Of a stretch of DNA of 64,000 nucleotides, positions 14,889 to 24,075 are shown in pieces. Origin of the DNA: an uncultured virus (IMG/VR IMGVR_UViG_3300033112_000355) (taxonomy: Duplodnaviria > Heunggongvirae > Uroviricota > Caudoviricetes); the IMG/VR virus record IMGVR_UViG_3300033112_000355. One strand, written 5' to 3'. The position numbers were made by a program, and so were the translations under genes. Numbering within the stretch: position 1 is the first letter of the stretch; each line of letters begins with the position of its first letter. The notes beneath the pieces were generated by a model. That model was given only the letters and a program-made list of their open reading frames with translations, searched no databases and was not told the DNA's origin.

Positions 14889-15131
14889 TTGATACTATTT
14901 ATGGACGAGTTTAAACTTACTCAACGAGTTCAAGGGCTTGAAGATATAAAAGCACGGGCTCTTGAGATGGCCGAGGCAGGTGCTGATGACCTTATGGTGC
15001 GTGATTTCATTGACGATGGAAAAAAAGCATTGGCTTATGCAGTGCCAGATGAGGAAGCAATGCTTAAAGCAGCCGATGCAGCAAAAAGATTCCGCACCAT
15101 GACGTTCAACGATAGGCCTGAGGAGCGGTAA
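14889..15131 (+). CDS. Hypothetical protein
   Basis: 80 aa helical ORF (probable start MDEFK). Confidence 0.5.
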   Translation: MILFMDEFKLTQRVQGLEDIKARALEMAEAGADDLMVRDFIDDGKKALAYAVPDEEAMLKAADAAKRFRTMTFNDRPEER

Positions 15132-15377
15132 TCGAATTCGCCATAGCGTTCAGAGGGCTGGTCCGGGTGTGACTGGCCTTTTTTTTGTAAATTTTTATTT
15201 TTAAAACCGGGAAGTGGCCCGTATGGGGGCGATTTTTTGAAAATTATAATTTTTTTGAGAATCGAAATGTTAAGAAAAGGTAAAAAAGGCCCTATATAGG
15301 CCGATTTGGGAAAATATTCTGCTGATCCTTCTAGCAAGGGCTACATCTTTGCACAACCGAGAGGAAAAAAAAATAAT

Positions 15378-15568
15378 TGTGGATAAGTCTGTGGAGAACG
15401 GGGCGGGGCCTGGGGAAAACGGAGGGTGTCCTGTGGAGAACCAGGGTTGAGACGGGTGAGACCTGGGGAAAACCGGGGGAATGTGTGGGAATCCTGACAA
15501 TCACAGGGGAATTGTTAAGATTTCTTGCAGATATTCCTGTGGAAAACTACCGTTCTGGCTGTGGAAAA
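15378..15568 (-). repeat. Array of about 8 co-oriented DnaA-box-like 9-mers
   Basis: TGTGGATAA 15378 (perfect TTATCCACA on minus), TGTGGAGAA 15390/15432, TGGGGAAAA 15411/15464, TGTGGGAAT 15484, TGTGGAAAA 15538/15560. Confidence 0.65.
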
Positions 15569-15678
15569 CGCTGAGATCCATTGCGGCGCAAGGGATGTCG
15601 AAATTTAGGGGTAAGGGGCGGGCACTTACATCGGTGTGGTATGTATGCGCGTGCGTTCCTATGTCTCCCGTGGGGTGG

Positions 15679-15708
15679 TTGACGGTGGGGCTGTGGTGTG
15701 GTTAATAT
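15679..15708 (+). promoter_or_regulatory. sigma70-type early promoter P1
   Basis: TTGACG-18 bp-TAATAT. Confidence 0.55.
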
Positions 15709-15744
15709 GGATTCAACGGGGAGGCCACAGCCGCTCCGCCCAAC

Positions 15745-15773
15745 TAGACAAGGGCCACCAACCCTGCTACAGT
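15745..15773 (+). promoter_or_regulatory. sigma70-type early promoter P2 (extended -10)
   Basis: TAGACA-17 bp-TACAGT with TG at -15/-14. Confidence 0.6.
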
Positions 15774-15904
15774 TGAACCAAGCGAGACGGATCACCACTC
15801 CGNNNNNNNNNNNNNNNNNNNNNNNNNNNNNNNNNNNNNNNNNNNNNNNNNNNNNNNNNNNNNNNNNNNNNNNNNNNNNNNNNNNNNNNNNNNNNNNNNN
15901 NNTC

Positions 15905-15913
15905 TGCTACAGT
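15905..15913 (+). promoter_or_regulatory. Early promoter P3, extended -10 (-35 lost in gap)
   Basis: TGCTACAGT identical to the P2 -10 region. Confidence 0.5.
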
Positions 15914-15947
15914 CTTCACGGGAGGTCACCACCCTTCCACAGACACA

Positions 15948-15980
15948 GTGAGGTTCGCCTCGCACCTAGACAATTGCATA
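15948..15980 (+). promoter_or_regulatory. rrn-like antitermination signal (hairpin plus boxA-like sequence)
   Basis: GTGAGG-TTCG-CCTCGC hairpin followed by GCACCTAGACAATTGCATA, close to the cyanobacterial rrn boxA context GAACCTTGA(A/C)AACTGCATA. Confidence 0.55.
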
Positions 15981-15981
15981 A

Positions 15982-16161
15982 GAGTCCCGGCACCGACTGG
16001 CGGCAGGTAGGCAAAGCAGAGCCATCCACAGCACGGCCCGGAAGCGTGTGACAACGATCAGGGTGTCACAGCCAGGGGGAGACATCCTCTGTAGCCGAAA
16101 CGTAGTCTCTGACTGAGATGATGGTAGGTAAAGTGTGCGGAGTGGCAGCCGCAGCGGGCTC
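15982..16161 (+). ncRNA. Unclassified multi-stem structured leader RNA
   Basis: Closing stem GAG(T)CCCG/CGGGCTC; hairpins TGTGACA/TGTCACA, CAGGGGGA-GACA-TCCTCTG, TGCGG/CCGCA; loop-E-like CCGAAAC...GGTAGG. Confidence 0.5.
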
Positions 16162-16172
16162 ATAGATTCACC

Positions 16173-16222
16173 GATCCCGGTCCCAAGGGGGGACTGTGCA
16201 GGTTCGAGTCCTGCCGGGATCC
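16173..16222 (+). ncRNA. Minimal tRNA-like element (acceptor stem, one hairpin, T-arm)
   Basis: GATCCCG/CGGGATC stem, GTCCC/GGGAC hairpin, GCAGG-TTCGAGT-CCTGC T-arm; no D-arm, no CCA. Confidence 0.65.
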
Positions 16223-16259
16223 TTGGCAGCAGTAATGTTGCCATTGTTCTATCACCACT

Positions 16260-16919
16260 ATGAACATGTCAGAATTCGTTTCTGTTGATCCCAAGTTCTG
16301 GTATTGTCCTTCACTGTCAAGTGATGCACACATCTCAAAGACTTTAGGTGAACCAATCTCTCTCCCTGAGAGTATTGATTGCCACCACTGGGTAAGTGAT
16401 TGTGAAGATGAGTTATTAGCTCACTTCGCAGAACTTACCGGGGAATTGTATTCTTTCCACACTCGTGATAATACTTACAATTCAGAGAATGATTTTGACT
16501 CTGAATTTGTATTCACAATTGCTGCACCATGTGCGTCAGGTGATTACATTTATTGTCACGATGTTTTCGTCATTGTTGAGAAACATCTTGGCGGAGATGT
16601 TAGAGGAAACTATGGTCCTTTTGCGGTTTACCGTGTGGACAATTTAGGTGACACTGGTTTCTTTGATTGGACTTTGGGATGGTATGTTTCTCCTGTTAAT
16701 CAGGAGAGGGCACTTGATCAGATCGATACTAAAGAAATCGATTACCTAAATCAGCAGTTTTCTGCTGGGTATTCTTCTTTACCTACTTCACAAGTAAGGG
16801 ATCAATTATTAAACGGCGTTGAGCCTACTTGGAGTAAGCGCTTAAACTGTTTCGTTGCTCGCTTTGAGAATCTAGAGTTCGTCTGCCGTCTTGATGTTTG
16901 TGAACCTTACTATTGTTGA
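16260..16919 (+). CDS. Acidic early hypothetical protein
   Basis: 219 aa; HLGGDVRGNY motif; first gene after the leader. Confidence 0.6.
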   Translation: MNMSEFVSVDPKFWYCPSLSSDAHISKTLGEPISLPESIDCHHWVSDCEDELLAHFAELTGELYSFHTRDNTYNSENDFDSEFVFTIAAPCASGDYIYCHDVFVIVEKHLGGDVRGNYGPFAVYRVDNLGDTGFFDWTLGWYVSPVNQERALDQIDTKEIDYLNQQFSAGYSSLPTSQVRDQLLNGVEPTWSKRLNCFVARFENLEFVCRLDVCEPYYC

Positions 16920-16920
16920 T

Positions 16921-16985
16921 GTCGAAACTATCTCCTTCGGGAGATAGTCTCCGGGATTGGCATTCCCGGACTGATGAGACTGCCA
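16921..16985 (+). ncRNA. Type II hammerhead ribozyme (predicted cleavage after C16949)
   Basis: GTC-GAAA-CTATCTCC-TTCG-GGAGATAG-TC|TCCGGGA-TTGGCAT-TCCCGGA-CTGATGA-GAC; loop TGGCA can pair with 3' TGCCA. Confidence 0.93.
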
Positions 16986-17085
16986 NNNNNNNNNNNNNNN
17001 NNNNNNNNNNNNNNNNNNNNNNNNNNNNNNNNNNNNNNNNNNNNNNNNNNNNNNNNNNNNNNNNNNNNNNNNNNNNNNNNNNNNN

Positions 17086-17126
17086 TAGTCTCCGGGATTG
17101 GCATTCCCGGACTGATGAGACTGCCA
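17086..17126 (+). ncRNA. 3' part of an identical hammerhead after the gap (second copy or assembly overlap)
   Basis: 41 nt identical to 16945-16985. Confidence 0.6.
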
Positions 17127-17147
17127 CTGTTGTCTATCACCACTAAG

Positions 17148-17849
17148 ATGACTAAGTTCAAAGGCTATGTTTTACAGAGGATTTCTAGTCCTATTGATGG
17201 CAAACCCTTGGTCATAATCATGACCATGAAGAGTGCTAATCGCAAGACGAATAACATGTGCCAGATCTGGATCCTGCGAGAGGATGTTAATCCTGTCGAA
17301 GCCGTTGAATCTGGCGCTGACTTATCTATGTGCGGCTGGTGTTCACATAGGAAGAAAGATGATAGTTCACGTAGTTGCTATGTGAATCCAGGTCAAGCAC
17401 CTTTAGCCGTGTGGGAATCTTATCACCGTGGAATCTACGGTGAGTTAGATGACTTAACTCCTGACTTATTACAAGATCGTGAGGTTAGGTTTGGTGCTTT
17501 CGGTGATCCAGCAATGATGAGCCCTGTTATTGCACGGTGGATTGTTGACAACTGCAAGGCGCACACTGGTTACACTCATCAGTGGAAACGTGAATTTGCA
17601 GACTGGACTAAGGGATTGTTCATGGCTTCATGTGATCATTTCCAAGACTATTTGGACGCCAGTTCATTAGGTTGGAAATGTTTCAGTGTTATTCCTAAGG
17701 GTACAACTGCGAATCACATTGGCAAGTTGTGTCCTACAGAGGCAACAAACAGCCAGGCTACTTGCAAGACCTGTAAGTTATGCGATGGTGCCAAGACTGA
17801 TGTTTTCATTCCTGCTCATGGCAGGGGTGCAAAATACGTTAAGTTCTAA
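17148..17849 (+). CDS. Cys-rich phage protein, gp88/radical-SAM-like fold candidate
   Basis: SANRKT, CGWC, SCYV, VRFGAFGDP, TGYTHQW, CP...CxxCxxC...AHG motifs; ATG at 17148. Confidence 0.6.
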   Translation: MTKFKGYVLQRISSPIDGKPLVIIMTMKSANRKTNNMCQIWILREDVNPVEAVESGADLSMCGWCSHRKKDDSSRSCYVNPGQAPLAVWESYHRGIYGELDDLTPDLLQDREVRFGAFGDPAMMSPVIARWIVDNCKAHTGYTHQWKREFADWTKGLFMASCDHFQDYLDASSLGWKCFSVIPKGTTANHIGKLCPTEATNSQATCKTCKLCDGAKTDVFIPAHGRGAKYVKF

Positions 17850-17915
17850 GGCGAAACTATCTCCTTAGGGGGATAGTCCAGGGGATTGACATTCCCCTGC
17901 TGATGAGCCTGTCAA
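17849..17915 (+). ncRNA. Type II hammerhead ribozyme (predicted cleavage after C17878)
   Basis: AGGC-GAAA-CTATCTCC-TTAG-GGGGATAG-TC|CAGGGGA-TTGACAT-TCCCCTG-CTGATGA-GCCT; loop TTGACA can pair with 3' TGTCAA. Confidence 0.93.
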
Positions 17916-17952
17916 TTATCATCAGAAGTCACAAACATTATTCTTTCAAACC

Positions 17953-18324
17953 ATGCAAAACTACAGCATTCTTCGTGCTCTTAATGTTCTGAGCACAATG
18001 ATCCAAACCTCTTACAAACTCGGCTATGAGTTTGGTAAGTTCTACAGACAGCATCTACATCATCACGTTGTTTCTGCTGTGGCATTATTAATCACAGTCT
18101 GTGTTCACTTATGGGTGAACCGTCATCGATACATAAAGACCGTCGAGTCTTTGTTTGTATATCGATATGAACCTATGGTGAAGCTTGCACCTATCGTGCA
18201 TCCTCTCTATGCTTCCATGGAATCGCTCATGGATAAGACATCAAAGCAGCTCCGTTCCATCACTGGAATCAAGCGTAAGGTGTCTAAGGTGAGGATGGCT
18301 GGTCAGTATCTTTCAATGGTCTGA
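17953..18324 (+). CDS. Early membrane protein with a basic C-terminal helix pair
   Basis: One TM helix (VVSAVALLITVCVHLWV); C-terminal TSKQLRSITGIKRKVSK. Confidence 0.55.
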   Translation: MQNYSILRALNVLSTMIQTSYKLGYEFGKFYRQHLHHHVVSAVALLITVCVHLWVNRHRYIKTVESLFVYRYEPMVKLAPIVHPLYASMESLMDKTSKQLRSITGIKRKVSKVRMAGQYLSMV

Positions 18325-18334
18325 TCACCGGTAA

Positions 18335-18429
18335 CTGGGCCGCATCAGGGCTCGTCTGTGTGGTGCTTTCGTCCCCTGATTCTCTACGGCGTAAGACCCA
18401 GGTTCGGGAGATAGTTGCCCCTATCTCCC
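18335..18429 (+). ncRNA. Unclassified structured RNA after a stop codon
   Basis: Nested stems CTGGG/CCCAG, CCG/CGG, ATCAGGG/CCCTGAT, then 9-bp hairpin GGGAGATAG/CTATCTCCC. Confidence 0.45.
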
Positions 18430-18490
18430 CAGCATTTAATTCACGAGACTTAATCACCACTAAAGTCTCACCCATACATCAAATCAAACC

Positions 18491-18757
18491 ATGCTTAATT
18501 CATTTCGACTCGGTCAAAACAAATTTCTCACGTTGGATTCGTATCGTGAGGAAGATTACAACACAAACAGCATGAAACTTCACCACTATTTCTTATCAGT
18601 CATTGCTGGTATTGGGGTGGGCACATTACTAACAATTGCAGCTCAAAAAGAGATCAACAAAAGGGTAGAGACTAGGTGCTATGGTCCAGCGGATCAGATT
18701 GTATCTATCCGTTCTTTCATGGGCACTGTTAAGTTCTGCGTTAAGGGGACCAACTGA
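18491..18757 (+). CDS. Small membrane protein
   Basis: TM helix SVIAGIGVGTLLTIAA. Confidence 0.5.
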   Translation: MLNSFRLGQNKFLTLDSYREEDYNTNSMKLHHYFLSVIAGIGVGTLLTIAAQKEINKRVETRCYGPADQIVSIRSFMGTVKFCVKGTN

Positions 18758-19044
18758 TGAACCGAATTGAACGCATCAAATCCCTGATCAATGAAGCTGG
18801 GTCACGGTATGTTTCTGTCACCTTCATTAAGAAGGATGGCAGTGAACGTCAGATGACATTCAATCCTAAGGATGTGAATGACATCAAGGGCACAGGTGAC
18901 ACCAGTAAAGTTGATCCAAATATCTTCCGTGTTCGTGAGAACGCCCAGCAAGCATGGAAGTCATTCGATGCACGTCGTGTGCTCAGAATCAAATCCCAAG
19001 GTAGAACAACGGAGTTCAATGATGAAGAAAACAACCCCCTATGA
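18757..19044 (+). CDS. SH3-like beta-barrel (WYL_2/DUF2693-like) protein
   Basis: VSVTFIKKDGSERQM...AWKSFD signature. Confidence 0.65.
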   Translation: MNRIERIKSLINEAGSRYVSVTFIKKDGSERQMTFNPKDVNDIKGTGDTSKVDPNIFRVRENAQQAWKSFDARRVLRIKSQGRTTEFNDEENNPL

Positions 19045-19266
19045 CTGGACGCCCTCACTGATCCTGATAGGTTGCACAGTGCTGTTCCCTGGCCCTGGCT
19101 TCCTGATCGGTGGCATTGCCTTCTGTGCCTATGTGCTGCTGAAGGCTTTGCTCTTCCCTCCTGCCGCTGATACGGAAGGGGGGAGGGATCACAAGTCTGG
19201 TGAACAGTCCAAACAGAACAGACCATTGCTTCCCAAACCAAGACCAACGATCACCCGTAACGACTC

Positions 19267-19669
19267 ATGAACAATTATTATTCACTGCTAACTGCAAAAG
19301 ACACATCATGGATGGCCGATGATGAATCACCATTCAGGTTTCCAATAAGCTTCAAGGGGATTCCGTTTGTCCACTGTGAGCTAAGGAATTTCAAGCGTAG
19401 CTCTCTGAAGAAATTAGTGAGGCCAGTGGTAGAGAATCCAAAACTATACATACCCTCTGAGACCGGAAGAAAGTGTCTAATTTTTTCAGAATGTAGTTCT
19501 AAATCGATCTCTGTGCGAGCTAAGTTCAATTGGCAGATGCAACAGTGTATCGACAAGTGGCATAAACATGCGGAAGGTTTGGGCTGTGATGACCAACGCC
19601 CTTACCTTCGTTTGTTTGACGATTCATTGGCAAGTCTTTTCCCCCGTCCACACACAGCAGGTAAATCAT
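19267..19669 (+). CDS. Hypothetical protein (truncated by gap)
   Basis: Open frame running into the N gap. Confidence 0.45.
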
Positions 19670-19769
19670 NNNNNNNNNNNNNNNNNNNNNNNNNNNNNNN
19701 NNNNNNNNNNNNNNNNNNNNNNNNNNNNNNNNNNNNNNNNNNNNNNNNNNNNNNNNNNNNNNNNNNNNN

Positions 19770-19925
19770 ATGACTGAACAAGACATCAAGATCTATCTCC
19801 GTGACACAACGTCATTAAGTGAGGATCAGTTGCAGCTTGTGGCTTACCAAATAAGGCGCAGGCTTAACTACGCTCCGATCTATGACCAAATCGATGTACT
19901 AAAAGACGAATTCATTGACTCATGA
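19770..19925 (+). CDS. Small hypothetical protein (MTEQDIKIYL...DEFIDS)
   Basis: Manual translation; ATGA-coupled to the next gene. Confidence 0.5.
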   Translation: MTEQDIKIYLRDTTSLSEDQLQLVAYQIRRRLNYAPIYDQIDVLKDEFIDS

Positions 19926-20333
19926 AATTCACTTACGACGACGGCGGGCGCAGCCGTTACTTCAGAGGTAAGACAAGTGACTGCGCCACTCGTGCCATCG
20001 CTATCACAACTGGCCGGGATTACAAAGTCATTTACGATGAGCTGCGGGAGCTAACTGGCGAGTCACCCCGTAACGGCATCGACATCAGGCAGCCTAAGTT
20101 CCGCCAGTGGCTCGCTGAGCAAGGCCTAGAATGGGTGCCGACTATGAAGGTTGGCAAGGGCTGCACGGTTCACCTGCACGCGGATGAGCTGCCATCAGGC
20201 CGGTTGATCTGCCGCTGCAGCAAGCATCTAGTTGCTGTGATCGACGGTGTGATTCATGACACCTACGACAGCAGCCGGGAAGGGAAGCGCTGCGTTTATG
20301 GCTACTGGCAACGACGAATTCATTGACTCATGA
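19905..20333 (+). repeat. 21-bp perfect direct repeats GACGAATTCATTGACTCATGA flanking one gene
   Basis: Copies at 19905-19925 and 20313-20333. Confidence 0.85.
19922..20326 (+). CDS. Papain/C39-like fold phage protein (Cys-His-Asp)
   Basis: DCATRAIA...HLVAVIDGVIHDTYD motifs. Confidence 0.55.
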   Translation: MKFTYDDGGRSRYFRGKTSDCATRAIAITTGRDYKVIYDELRELTGESPRNGIDIRQPKFRQWLAEQGLEWVPTMKVGKGCTVHLHADELPSGRLICRCSKHLVAVIDGVIHDTYDSSREGKRCVYGYWQRRIH

Positions 20334-23986: not shown

Positions 23987-24075
23987 GGGAGCGTGCTGGA
24001 ATTGGTAGACAGAACGGACTTAAAATCCGTCGAGCTGTAAAGCTCATGCGGGTTCAAGTCCCGCCGCTCCTACCA
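23987..24075 (+). tRNA. trnL-UAA: tRNA-Leu(UAA), long variable arm, CCA encoded
   Basis: GGGAGCG/CGCTCCT acceptor, ACGGA-CTTAAAA-TCCGT anticodon arm, GCGGG-TTCAAGT-CCCGC T-arm. Confidence 0.96.

Follow-up and report, generated by a model that had tools for sequence, protein, structure and literature searches.

The window analysed here, a 64,000-nucleotide stretch of uncultured viral DNA, includes genes for a terminase, virion proteins, a family A DNA polymerase, a primase and a tail fibre. Its terminase is 78% identical to that of the Synechococcus phage S-EIVl, and the window is colinear from end to end with a complete IMG/VR genome of 69.8 kb that has terminal repeats (G001; 143 tblastn rows). 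The window comes from an uncultured, S-EIVl-like cyanophage; a blastn search of positions 15000-20000 against phage records gave no match. The structural genes run leftward and diverge at ~14.9 kb from a long rightward gene block, near the start of which lie two hammerhead ribozyme sequences, HH1 and HH2. Three genes on the plus strand are concerned. The upstream ORF (16260-16919, 219 aa) has no Pfam or PHROG match and no counterpart in the colinear G001, which makes this upstream position a variable slot. The flanked gene (17148-17849, 233 aa) belongs to PHROG 2554, of unknown function, and weakly matches DUF7227. The downstream ORF (17953-18324, 123 aa; PHROG 3587, of unknown function) begins 38 nt downstream of HH2 and keeps its synteny in G001 and in a further genome, G003. 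No terminator-like sites were found between the three genes.

Elsewhere in the window, positions 23987-24075 encode a phage tRNA-Leu (anticodon UAA) with a long variable arm, and at least six copies of an iteron-like repeat, CCTG(T/G)GGA(A/G/T)AAC, lie at 15390-15570 in the divergent region between the leftward structural and the rightward genes. The repeats are present in G001 also and may be an origin or an operator array. The S-EIVl terminase CDS (L090, KJ410740.1 54080-56620) measures 2541 nt, while the window terminase has 508 aa and matches it in two pieces over 2475 nt; from this two-piece match, ~1 kb (an intein or similar) seems to be inserted in the S-EIVl gene and to be missing in the window.

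HH1 (16920-16985, plus strand, 66 nt) was identified by its sequence, by Rfam and by its predicted fold. Its 3-bp stem II pairs GUC at 16921-16923 with GAC at 16978-16980. Between these strands lie the GAAA element (16924-16927), stem III (16928-16947; 8 bp, UUCG loop), the GUC triplet whose last nucleotide, C16949, precedes the predicted cut, stem I (16950-16970, 7 bp) and CUGAUGA (16971-16977). A 5-bp pseudoknot is predicted between UGGCA in loop I (16958-16962) and the tail UGCCA (16981-16985). HH2 (17849-17914, plus strand, 66 nt) was identified by its sequence, the Rfam model and its fold, and has the same layout: stem II formed by GGC at 17850-17852 and GCC at 17907-17909 (3 bp), GAAA at 17853-17856, stem III at 17857-17876, a GUC ending at the predicted cut site C17878, stem I at 17879-17899, CUGAUGA at 17900-17906, and a 5-bp pseudoknot of loop UGACA (17887-17891) with tail UGUCA (17910-17914). 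The stop codon of the upstream ORF, TGA at 16917-16919, is separated from stem II of HH1 by the single nucleotide T16920, and the TAA of the flanked gene (17847-17849) is directly followed by stem II of HH2.

Under the core and no-mispair criteria for hammerheads in PMC3088659, the conserved core (C3 U4 G5 A6 N7 G8 A9, G12 A13 A14, A15.1-U16.1 and H17) is found in HH1 and HH2 alike. The core-adjacent pairs 10.1-11.1, 1.1-2.1 and 15.1-16.1 are intact in HH1 (G16978-C16923, U16950-A16970 and A16927-U16948) and in HH2 (G17907-C17852, C17879-G17899 and A17856-U17877). Rfam alignments and folds give the type II order in both, with an open stem II and with stems III and I as hairpins, and the three-way hammerhead junction is both the minimum-free-energy and the centroid fold (z = -3.07 for HH1 and -3.19 for HH2). 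By these features HH1 and HH2 are complete type II hammerheads with a predicted loop I/3'-tail pseudoknot. The sequence-only reading had claimed complete cores, siting at stop codons, and compensatory differences between the two copies in stem II, stem I and the loop-I/3'-tail pseudoknot, and each of these was found in the sequence.

That reading had also named the Rfam type II model as a check. Against RF02276, with its gathering score of 37, HH1 scored above the threshold (38.3 bits, E 3e-4 in the 64-kb window), whereas HH2 stayed below it (31.1 bits, E 0.0011 in a 3-kb scan) and was absent from the whole-window listing at E<=1. Since clear orthologues of these hammerheads in G001 and G003 also score only 35.4-36 bits, the threshold appears tight for this subfamily. 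HH1 and HH2 share with the RF02276 family the permuted topology, the capped stems I and III and the short open stem II, and the loop I UGG and the tail GCCA agree with the Rfam consensus. There is no structural difference from the family. HH2 falls 6 bits under the gathering score, stem II has 3 bp where Rfam models 2, and stem III has 8 bp closed by a UUCG or UUAG loop.

Between HH1 and the flanked gene, the window contains a scaffold artefact at 16986-17126, made up of 100 N (16986-17085) and a 41-nt duplicate of the HH1 3' part (17086-17126), which the sequence-only reading had not mentioned. Contigs of four DNA runs (X1-X4) were placed on 16500-17600; X1 is possibly the sample of the window itself, and X2-X4 are from the same study. 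In one X2 contig, 16944 is followed at once by 17086, so that 141 nt are absent, with an ambiguity of 41 nt. In one X3 contig, HH1 continues into a strain variant of the leader, and a protein 96% identical to the flanked protein (P0001) was called from within a contiguous hammerhead. Because the X2 contig crosses the region without the gap, and the X3 contig and P0001 agree, the gap is a scaffolding artefact and HH1 is single: in the true sequence, 16985 continues straight into 17127. With the gap collapsed, the two cut sites are 788 nt apart and HH1 ends 21 nt before ATG 17148. The ATG inside CUGAUGA was considered as a gene start and rejected, being in frame with the downstream ORF in 27 of 84 hammerheads, about one third, as expected by chance; the flanked gene starts at 17148.

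For relatives of the locus, a search with the single protein found no loci, and an alignment-based search found them. A covariance model built from four hammerhead copies detected hammerheads in only two of 80 viral loci encoding relatives of the flanked protein. One is G001 (L007), where the gene has hammerheads both upstream and downstream; the other (L035) has an upstream hammerhead only. A pattern scan added G003 (L088), in which the gene likewise lies between two hammerheads, with the same 123-aa gene downstream. In the orthologous upstream copies, the middle pair of stem II is U-A in the window, A-U in G001 and G-C in G003, and stem I has changed on both sides too. The S-EIVl record holds no relative of the flanked gene, and no hammerhead was found in it, either in a first look with Rfam (0 candidates; such first-look blanks are weak, as such a look missed the L035 hammerhead that cmsearch found) or with the covariance model over the whole record. 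In the closest hammerhead-less relatives, the gene is packed tightly against its neighbours. Given the two loci in 80, S-EIVl and these packed relatives, the hammerhead pair is a trait of this phage lineage rather than of the gene family; and since most relatives and S-EIVl are without hammerheads, the ribozymes are dispensable for the flanked gene family.

A degenerate pattern fixing the core and a CUGNCA tail yielded 50 viral loci, from which the covariance model recovered 92 hammerheads (82 distinct ones) in 49 sources; the core is intact in every copy. In the alignment of the 82 (A4), standard pairs fill 96.5% of 1701 pair cells, pseudoknot included, and double-sided changes occur in 20 of the 23 pairs, counts that lean towards structure because A4 was fitted to the covariance model built here and its 50 source loci were picked by pattern. 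The pattern pre-selected the core and the tail, not loop I, and the pseudoknot helix is 91% paired over the 82 relatives, with double changes in three of its five pairs. The observed covariation score was 0.635, against 0.138 for shuffled alignments and at most 0.082 with the partners slid, and none of 500 shuffles reached the observed value by any measure. Compensatory changes in all four helices show that selection acts on RNA structure and not on DNA identity. The covariation proposed from the two window copies is strengthened by the G001 and G003 orthologues and by this alignment.

The siting at stop codons, which these relatives likewise strengthen, is real and general among related hammerheads. 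We located the longest nearby-ending upstream ORF for 84 non-redundant hammerheads, and it has at least 40 codons in 77. In 61 of the 84, the stop of such an ORF falls between -2 and +7 nt from the first base of stem II, compared with 979 of 16,800 positions taken at random on the same strand of these loci (5.8%), and in 14 it overlaps stem II. On the other side, a complete ORF of at least 40 codons begins within 130 nt after the tail in 74 of 84, at a median start distance of 20 nt. Flush with the stop and ~20 nt from the next start, the ribozyme fills the intergenic gap and leaves room for a ribosome-binding leader, and genome compaction explains the siting without further assumptions. It follows from the siting that cleavage would leave ~30 nt past the stop and that a terminating ribosome would cover part of the ribozyme; as stem II and half of stem III would be covered, cleavage in vivo could be hindered.

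In two proviruses, the hammerheads form arrays with one copy per gene: 17 on one strand in 8.5 kb of a 51.7-kb provirus (G009:C1:5564-14103, minus strand) and, in a provirus of 49.3 kb, 10 within 4.7 kb (G007:C1:8307-13042, minus strand). Smaller sets occur in G008 (7), G010 (5) and G011 (3). The G009 and G007 arrays are far denser than the published examples with which we compared them. A survey of the genes that follow the 84 hammerheads covered 68 of the 74, the six from the window, L007 and L088 being excluded; 14 of the 68 match a PHROG, in every case of unknown function, and there is no recurrent family among them beyond near-duplicates.

The flanked protein has 790 relatives at E<=0.001. 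Its Atlas neighbours are viral hypothetical proteins, of which a minority carry a DUF7227 or GP88 label. Seven cysteines (C62, C65, C77, C195, C206, C209 and C212 in the numbering of the window protein) are invariant, as is an H139/H144 motif. A search against PDB sequences gave no match (best E 0.6), and Foldseek with the AlphaFold model (mean pLDDT 79) returned nothing at E<=0.001. The best fold matches of the model, by VIA-align, are radical-SAM partial barrels such as QueE and PFL-AE; Z scores of 3.4-4.2 make them a lead but are too weak to call. An antirestriction label is attached to one homologue, from a Pseudoalteromonas phage record.

After HH1, a leader hairpin at 17132-17149 (plus strand; stem GUCU/AGAU) with the conserved loop AUCACCACUA abuts the start codon at 17148. 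Hairpins with the invariant loop AUCACCACU(A) occur three times in the window (16245-16266, 17132-17149 and 18445-18469), in G001 (L147) near 16924, 17185, 17627, 17936 and 19300, in L088, and in L145 near 250. Their stems covary (GUUC/GAAC, GUCU/AGAU, GAGACUU/AAGUCUC and GGCUUC/GAAGUC), and most copies abut a start codon; a copy comes next after HH1 and not after HH2. The motif ATCACCACT was counted 73 times, against ~4 expected, in 573 kb of loci that include many overlapping copies of the same contigs, and nearly all of its copies are in this phage lineage. The loop is similar, not complementary, to the 3' end of 16S rRNA, and the hairpin may be an operator for a shared regulator.

Other gaps in the operons of the window, G001 and G003 hold different structured modules ahead of the shared leader hairpin. 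In gaps without a hammerhead, a GNRA-capped 8-bp hairpin lies just 5' of the leader hairpin; it reads UGGCAGCA-GUAA-UGUUGCCA at 16224-16243 of the window and, with a compensatory change, UGUCAGCA-GCAA-UGCUGACA in G001 (L147 17158-17177 and 17600-17619), and its outer pairs, UGGCA/UGCCA, are identical to the hammerhead pseudoknot pairing. Another hairpin, GGGAGAUAG-UUGCCC-CUAUCUCCC (18406-18429, in the 165-nt gap before ORF 18491), has the arms of hammerhead stem III in swapped order. At 16173-16221 lies a three-way element that looks like a tRNA. It has an acceptor-like stem of 8 bp, a short arm and a T-arm (CAGG-UUCGAGU-CCUG), is called by neither ARAGORN nor Rfam, and might be acted on by tRNA-processing enzymes. 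The element closes a stretch of GC-rich DNA (15961-16263) that has no convincing ORF, shares 88% identity with G001 and is the best-conserved DNA in the area. A second run of 100 N (15803-15902) falls in the conserved non-coding stretch, so any large RNA there would be incomplete in the window. As a rather doubtful but specific idea, the hammerhead, the tRNA-like element and the GNRA hairpin could be interchangeable modules for mRNA 5' ends before the AUCACCACU leader. The early operon would then be a 'punctuated' transcript whose cistrons are released by ribozyme or tRNA-processing enzymes and jointly controlled by one loop-specific factor.

The hammerhead class, the pseudoknot, gene-flanking prophage clusters and the mRNA-processing idea are already present in PMC3088659 (2011), in which Perreault et al. 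reported the first natural type II hammerheads. Mutations demonstrated there that the loop I/3'-tail pseudoknot is needed for fast cleavage, and related pseudoknotted type II hammerheads cleaved fast at 0.5 mM Mg2+. For clustered prophage hammerheads, cutting of polycistronic transcripts of ~2 kb was seen both in vitro and in E. coli, triple arrangements were cleaved in vitro and the A. tumefaciens triple in E. coli as well, and the text implies that long phage transcripts are processed into single-gene mRNAs. By the cluster criterion of Perreault et al., at least two hammerheads of the same orientation bracketing a phage gene or short block of phage genes, HH1 and HH2, both on the plus strand, form such a cluster. 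Like the prophage clusters described in that paper (the A. tumefaciens ardA triple, C. scindens and A. caulinodans), they share one orientation and bracket an individual gene; the genes flanked in those clusters vary, and cutting into single-gene mRNAs was proposed for them too. The present case differs in its setting, an S-EIVl-like cyanophage, in its DUF7227/GP88-like gene and in the conservation of the pair across three related genomes. The main text of PMC3088659 nowhere uses the phrase 'stop codon' (0 occurrences), and the abutment is quantified in the present work.

Further comparisons come from Desulfovibrio vulgaris, in which three type II hammerheads cleave in vivo according to PMC8782182, as demonstrated with cyPhyRNA-seq by captured 2',3'-cyclic-phosphate and 5'-OH ends. 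They likewise lie near phage-like genes, two of them ~300 nt apart, but on a bacterial chromosome. HHphage of the haloviruses HF1/HF2, as described in PMC3088659, lies 13 nt upstream of a start codon in an early polycistronic transcript, similar to the placement here, and a 5' end was mapped within 3 nt of its cut site; it differs in its core variant, its archaeal virus and its single copy, which does not bracket a gene. A 2019 review (PMC6765202) still calls the roles of bacterial and phage hammerheads largely elusive, and PMC13725137 concerns RNA viruses. We found no account of cyanophage hammerheads or of a stop-codon rule in the literature covered, partly available as text and with subscription journals outside its range.

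We consider it probable that HH1 and HH2, flanking a small cyanophage gene, cut a long phage message into single-gene pieces. Beside the observed sequence, fold, covariation and conserved placement, it is cleavage in vivo and its effect on expression that we infer; no RNA run was found to contain positions 17086-18400. Each ribozyme would fold during transcription, with the loop I/3'-tail pseudoknot keeping stems I and II parallel, and self-cleavage after C16949 and C17878 would free an RNA of 788 nt carrying only the gene of the DUF7227/GP88-like protein. By the chemistry of hammerheads and the type II topology, the stem III hairpin and a 2',3'-cyclic phosphate would close the upstream fragments ~30 nt beyond the stop codon, and downstream fragments would open, ~20-40 nt ahead of the start codon, with the stem I hairpin, bearing a 5'-OH at its base, and the pseudoknot. 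Linked by the 3-bp stem II only, the products should separate. That the new ends would stabilise the RNAs, as the sequence-only reading had suggested, is something we only infer. The likely result would be neighbouring cistrons uncoupled in stability and translation, a natural insulator. RiboJ-type synthetic insulators were engineered from a satellite-RNA hammerhead, and by cleaving themselves they strip off the upstream context, so that the downstream message begins with a hairpin; the parallel with HH1 and HH2 is a functional one only.

The close abutment to stop codons could instead point to a translation-gated switch, in which a terminating ribosome melts the ribozyme and cleavage reports translation of the upstream ORF rather than being constitutive processing. 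Of the 77 hammerheads preceded by an ORF of 40 codons or more, 43 have the stop at -2 to +2 nt from stem II, the overlap in 14 copies fits such coupling, and stops are enriched at 73% versus 5.8% at random positions. Yet tight packing alone accounts for the abutment, a hammerhead with a leader of ~20 nt occupying a short gap, and fast pseudoknot hammerheads may cleave ahead of the first ribosome; we therefore hold a switch to be unlikely. DNA-level recombination offers another explanation, by which HH1 and HH2, as 63-nt direct repeats (83% identical), would mainly serve as boundaries at which cassettes are swapped or deleted. HH1 is 86% identical to its G001 counterpart against 71% in the flanking 2 kb, the gene immediately upstream of HH1 is unrelated between the window, G001 and G003, and assemblies break at HH1. 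The compensatory changes in all four helices, with every core intact, indicate instead that RNA structure is selected, and recombination could be a by-product of the ribozyme role and not an alternative to it, so that a primarily DNA-level function seems quite improbable.

Processing of another kind would follow if the excised 788-nt RNA were ligated, by host RtcB or by the reverse reaction of the ribozyme, into a circular mRNA. Ends with a 5'-OH and a 2',3'-cyclic phosphate have the right chemistry for RtcB. Spliced or circular products were raised as a possibility in PMC3088659, but its authors failed to detect them; moreover, the junction of the HH2 5' half with the HH1 3' half would give a stem II of GGC/GAC with a G-A mismatch, which leaves a circular mRNA very unlikely. 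Hardly any weight falls on inactive relics or chance hairpins with hammerhead-like motifs. HH2 does score below the Rfam cut-off, but complete cores, a 5-bp pseudoknot and a position conserved in three genomes with compensatory changes speak against decay or chance, as do covariance model scores of 94 and 92 bits, obtained with a model built from these copies, beside which independent relatives reach up to 93.

These findings leave the accepted picture unchanged and support the mRNA-processing idea. They add a clean case: three related cyanophage genomes retain orthologous ribozymes on either side of one gene, although its upstream neighbour has been exchanged. The start at the stop codon and the end ~20 nt before the next start provide general constraints for models of these ribozymes. 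The phages with one hammerhead per gene, up to 17 in 8.5 kb, constrain such models as well, and the survey indicates better test systems than an uncultured phage.
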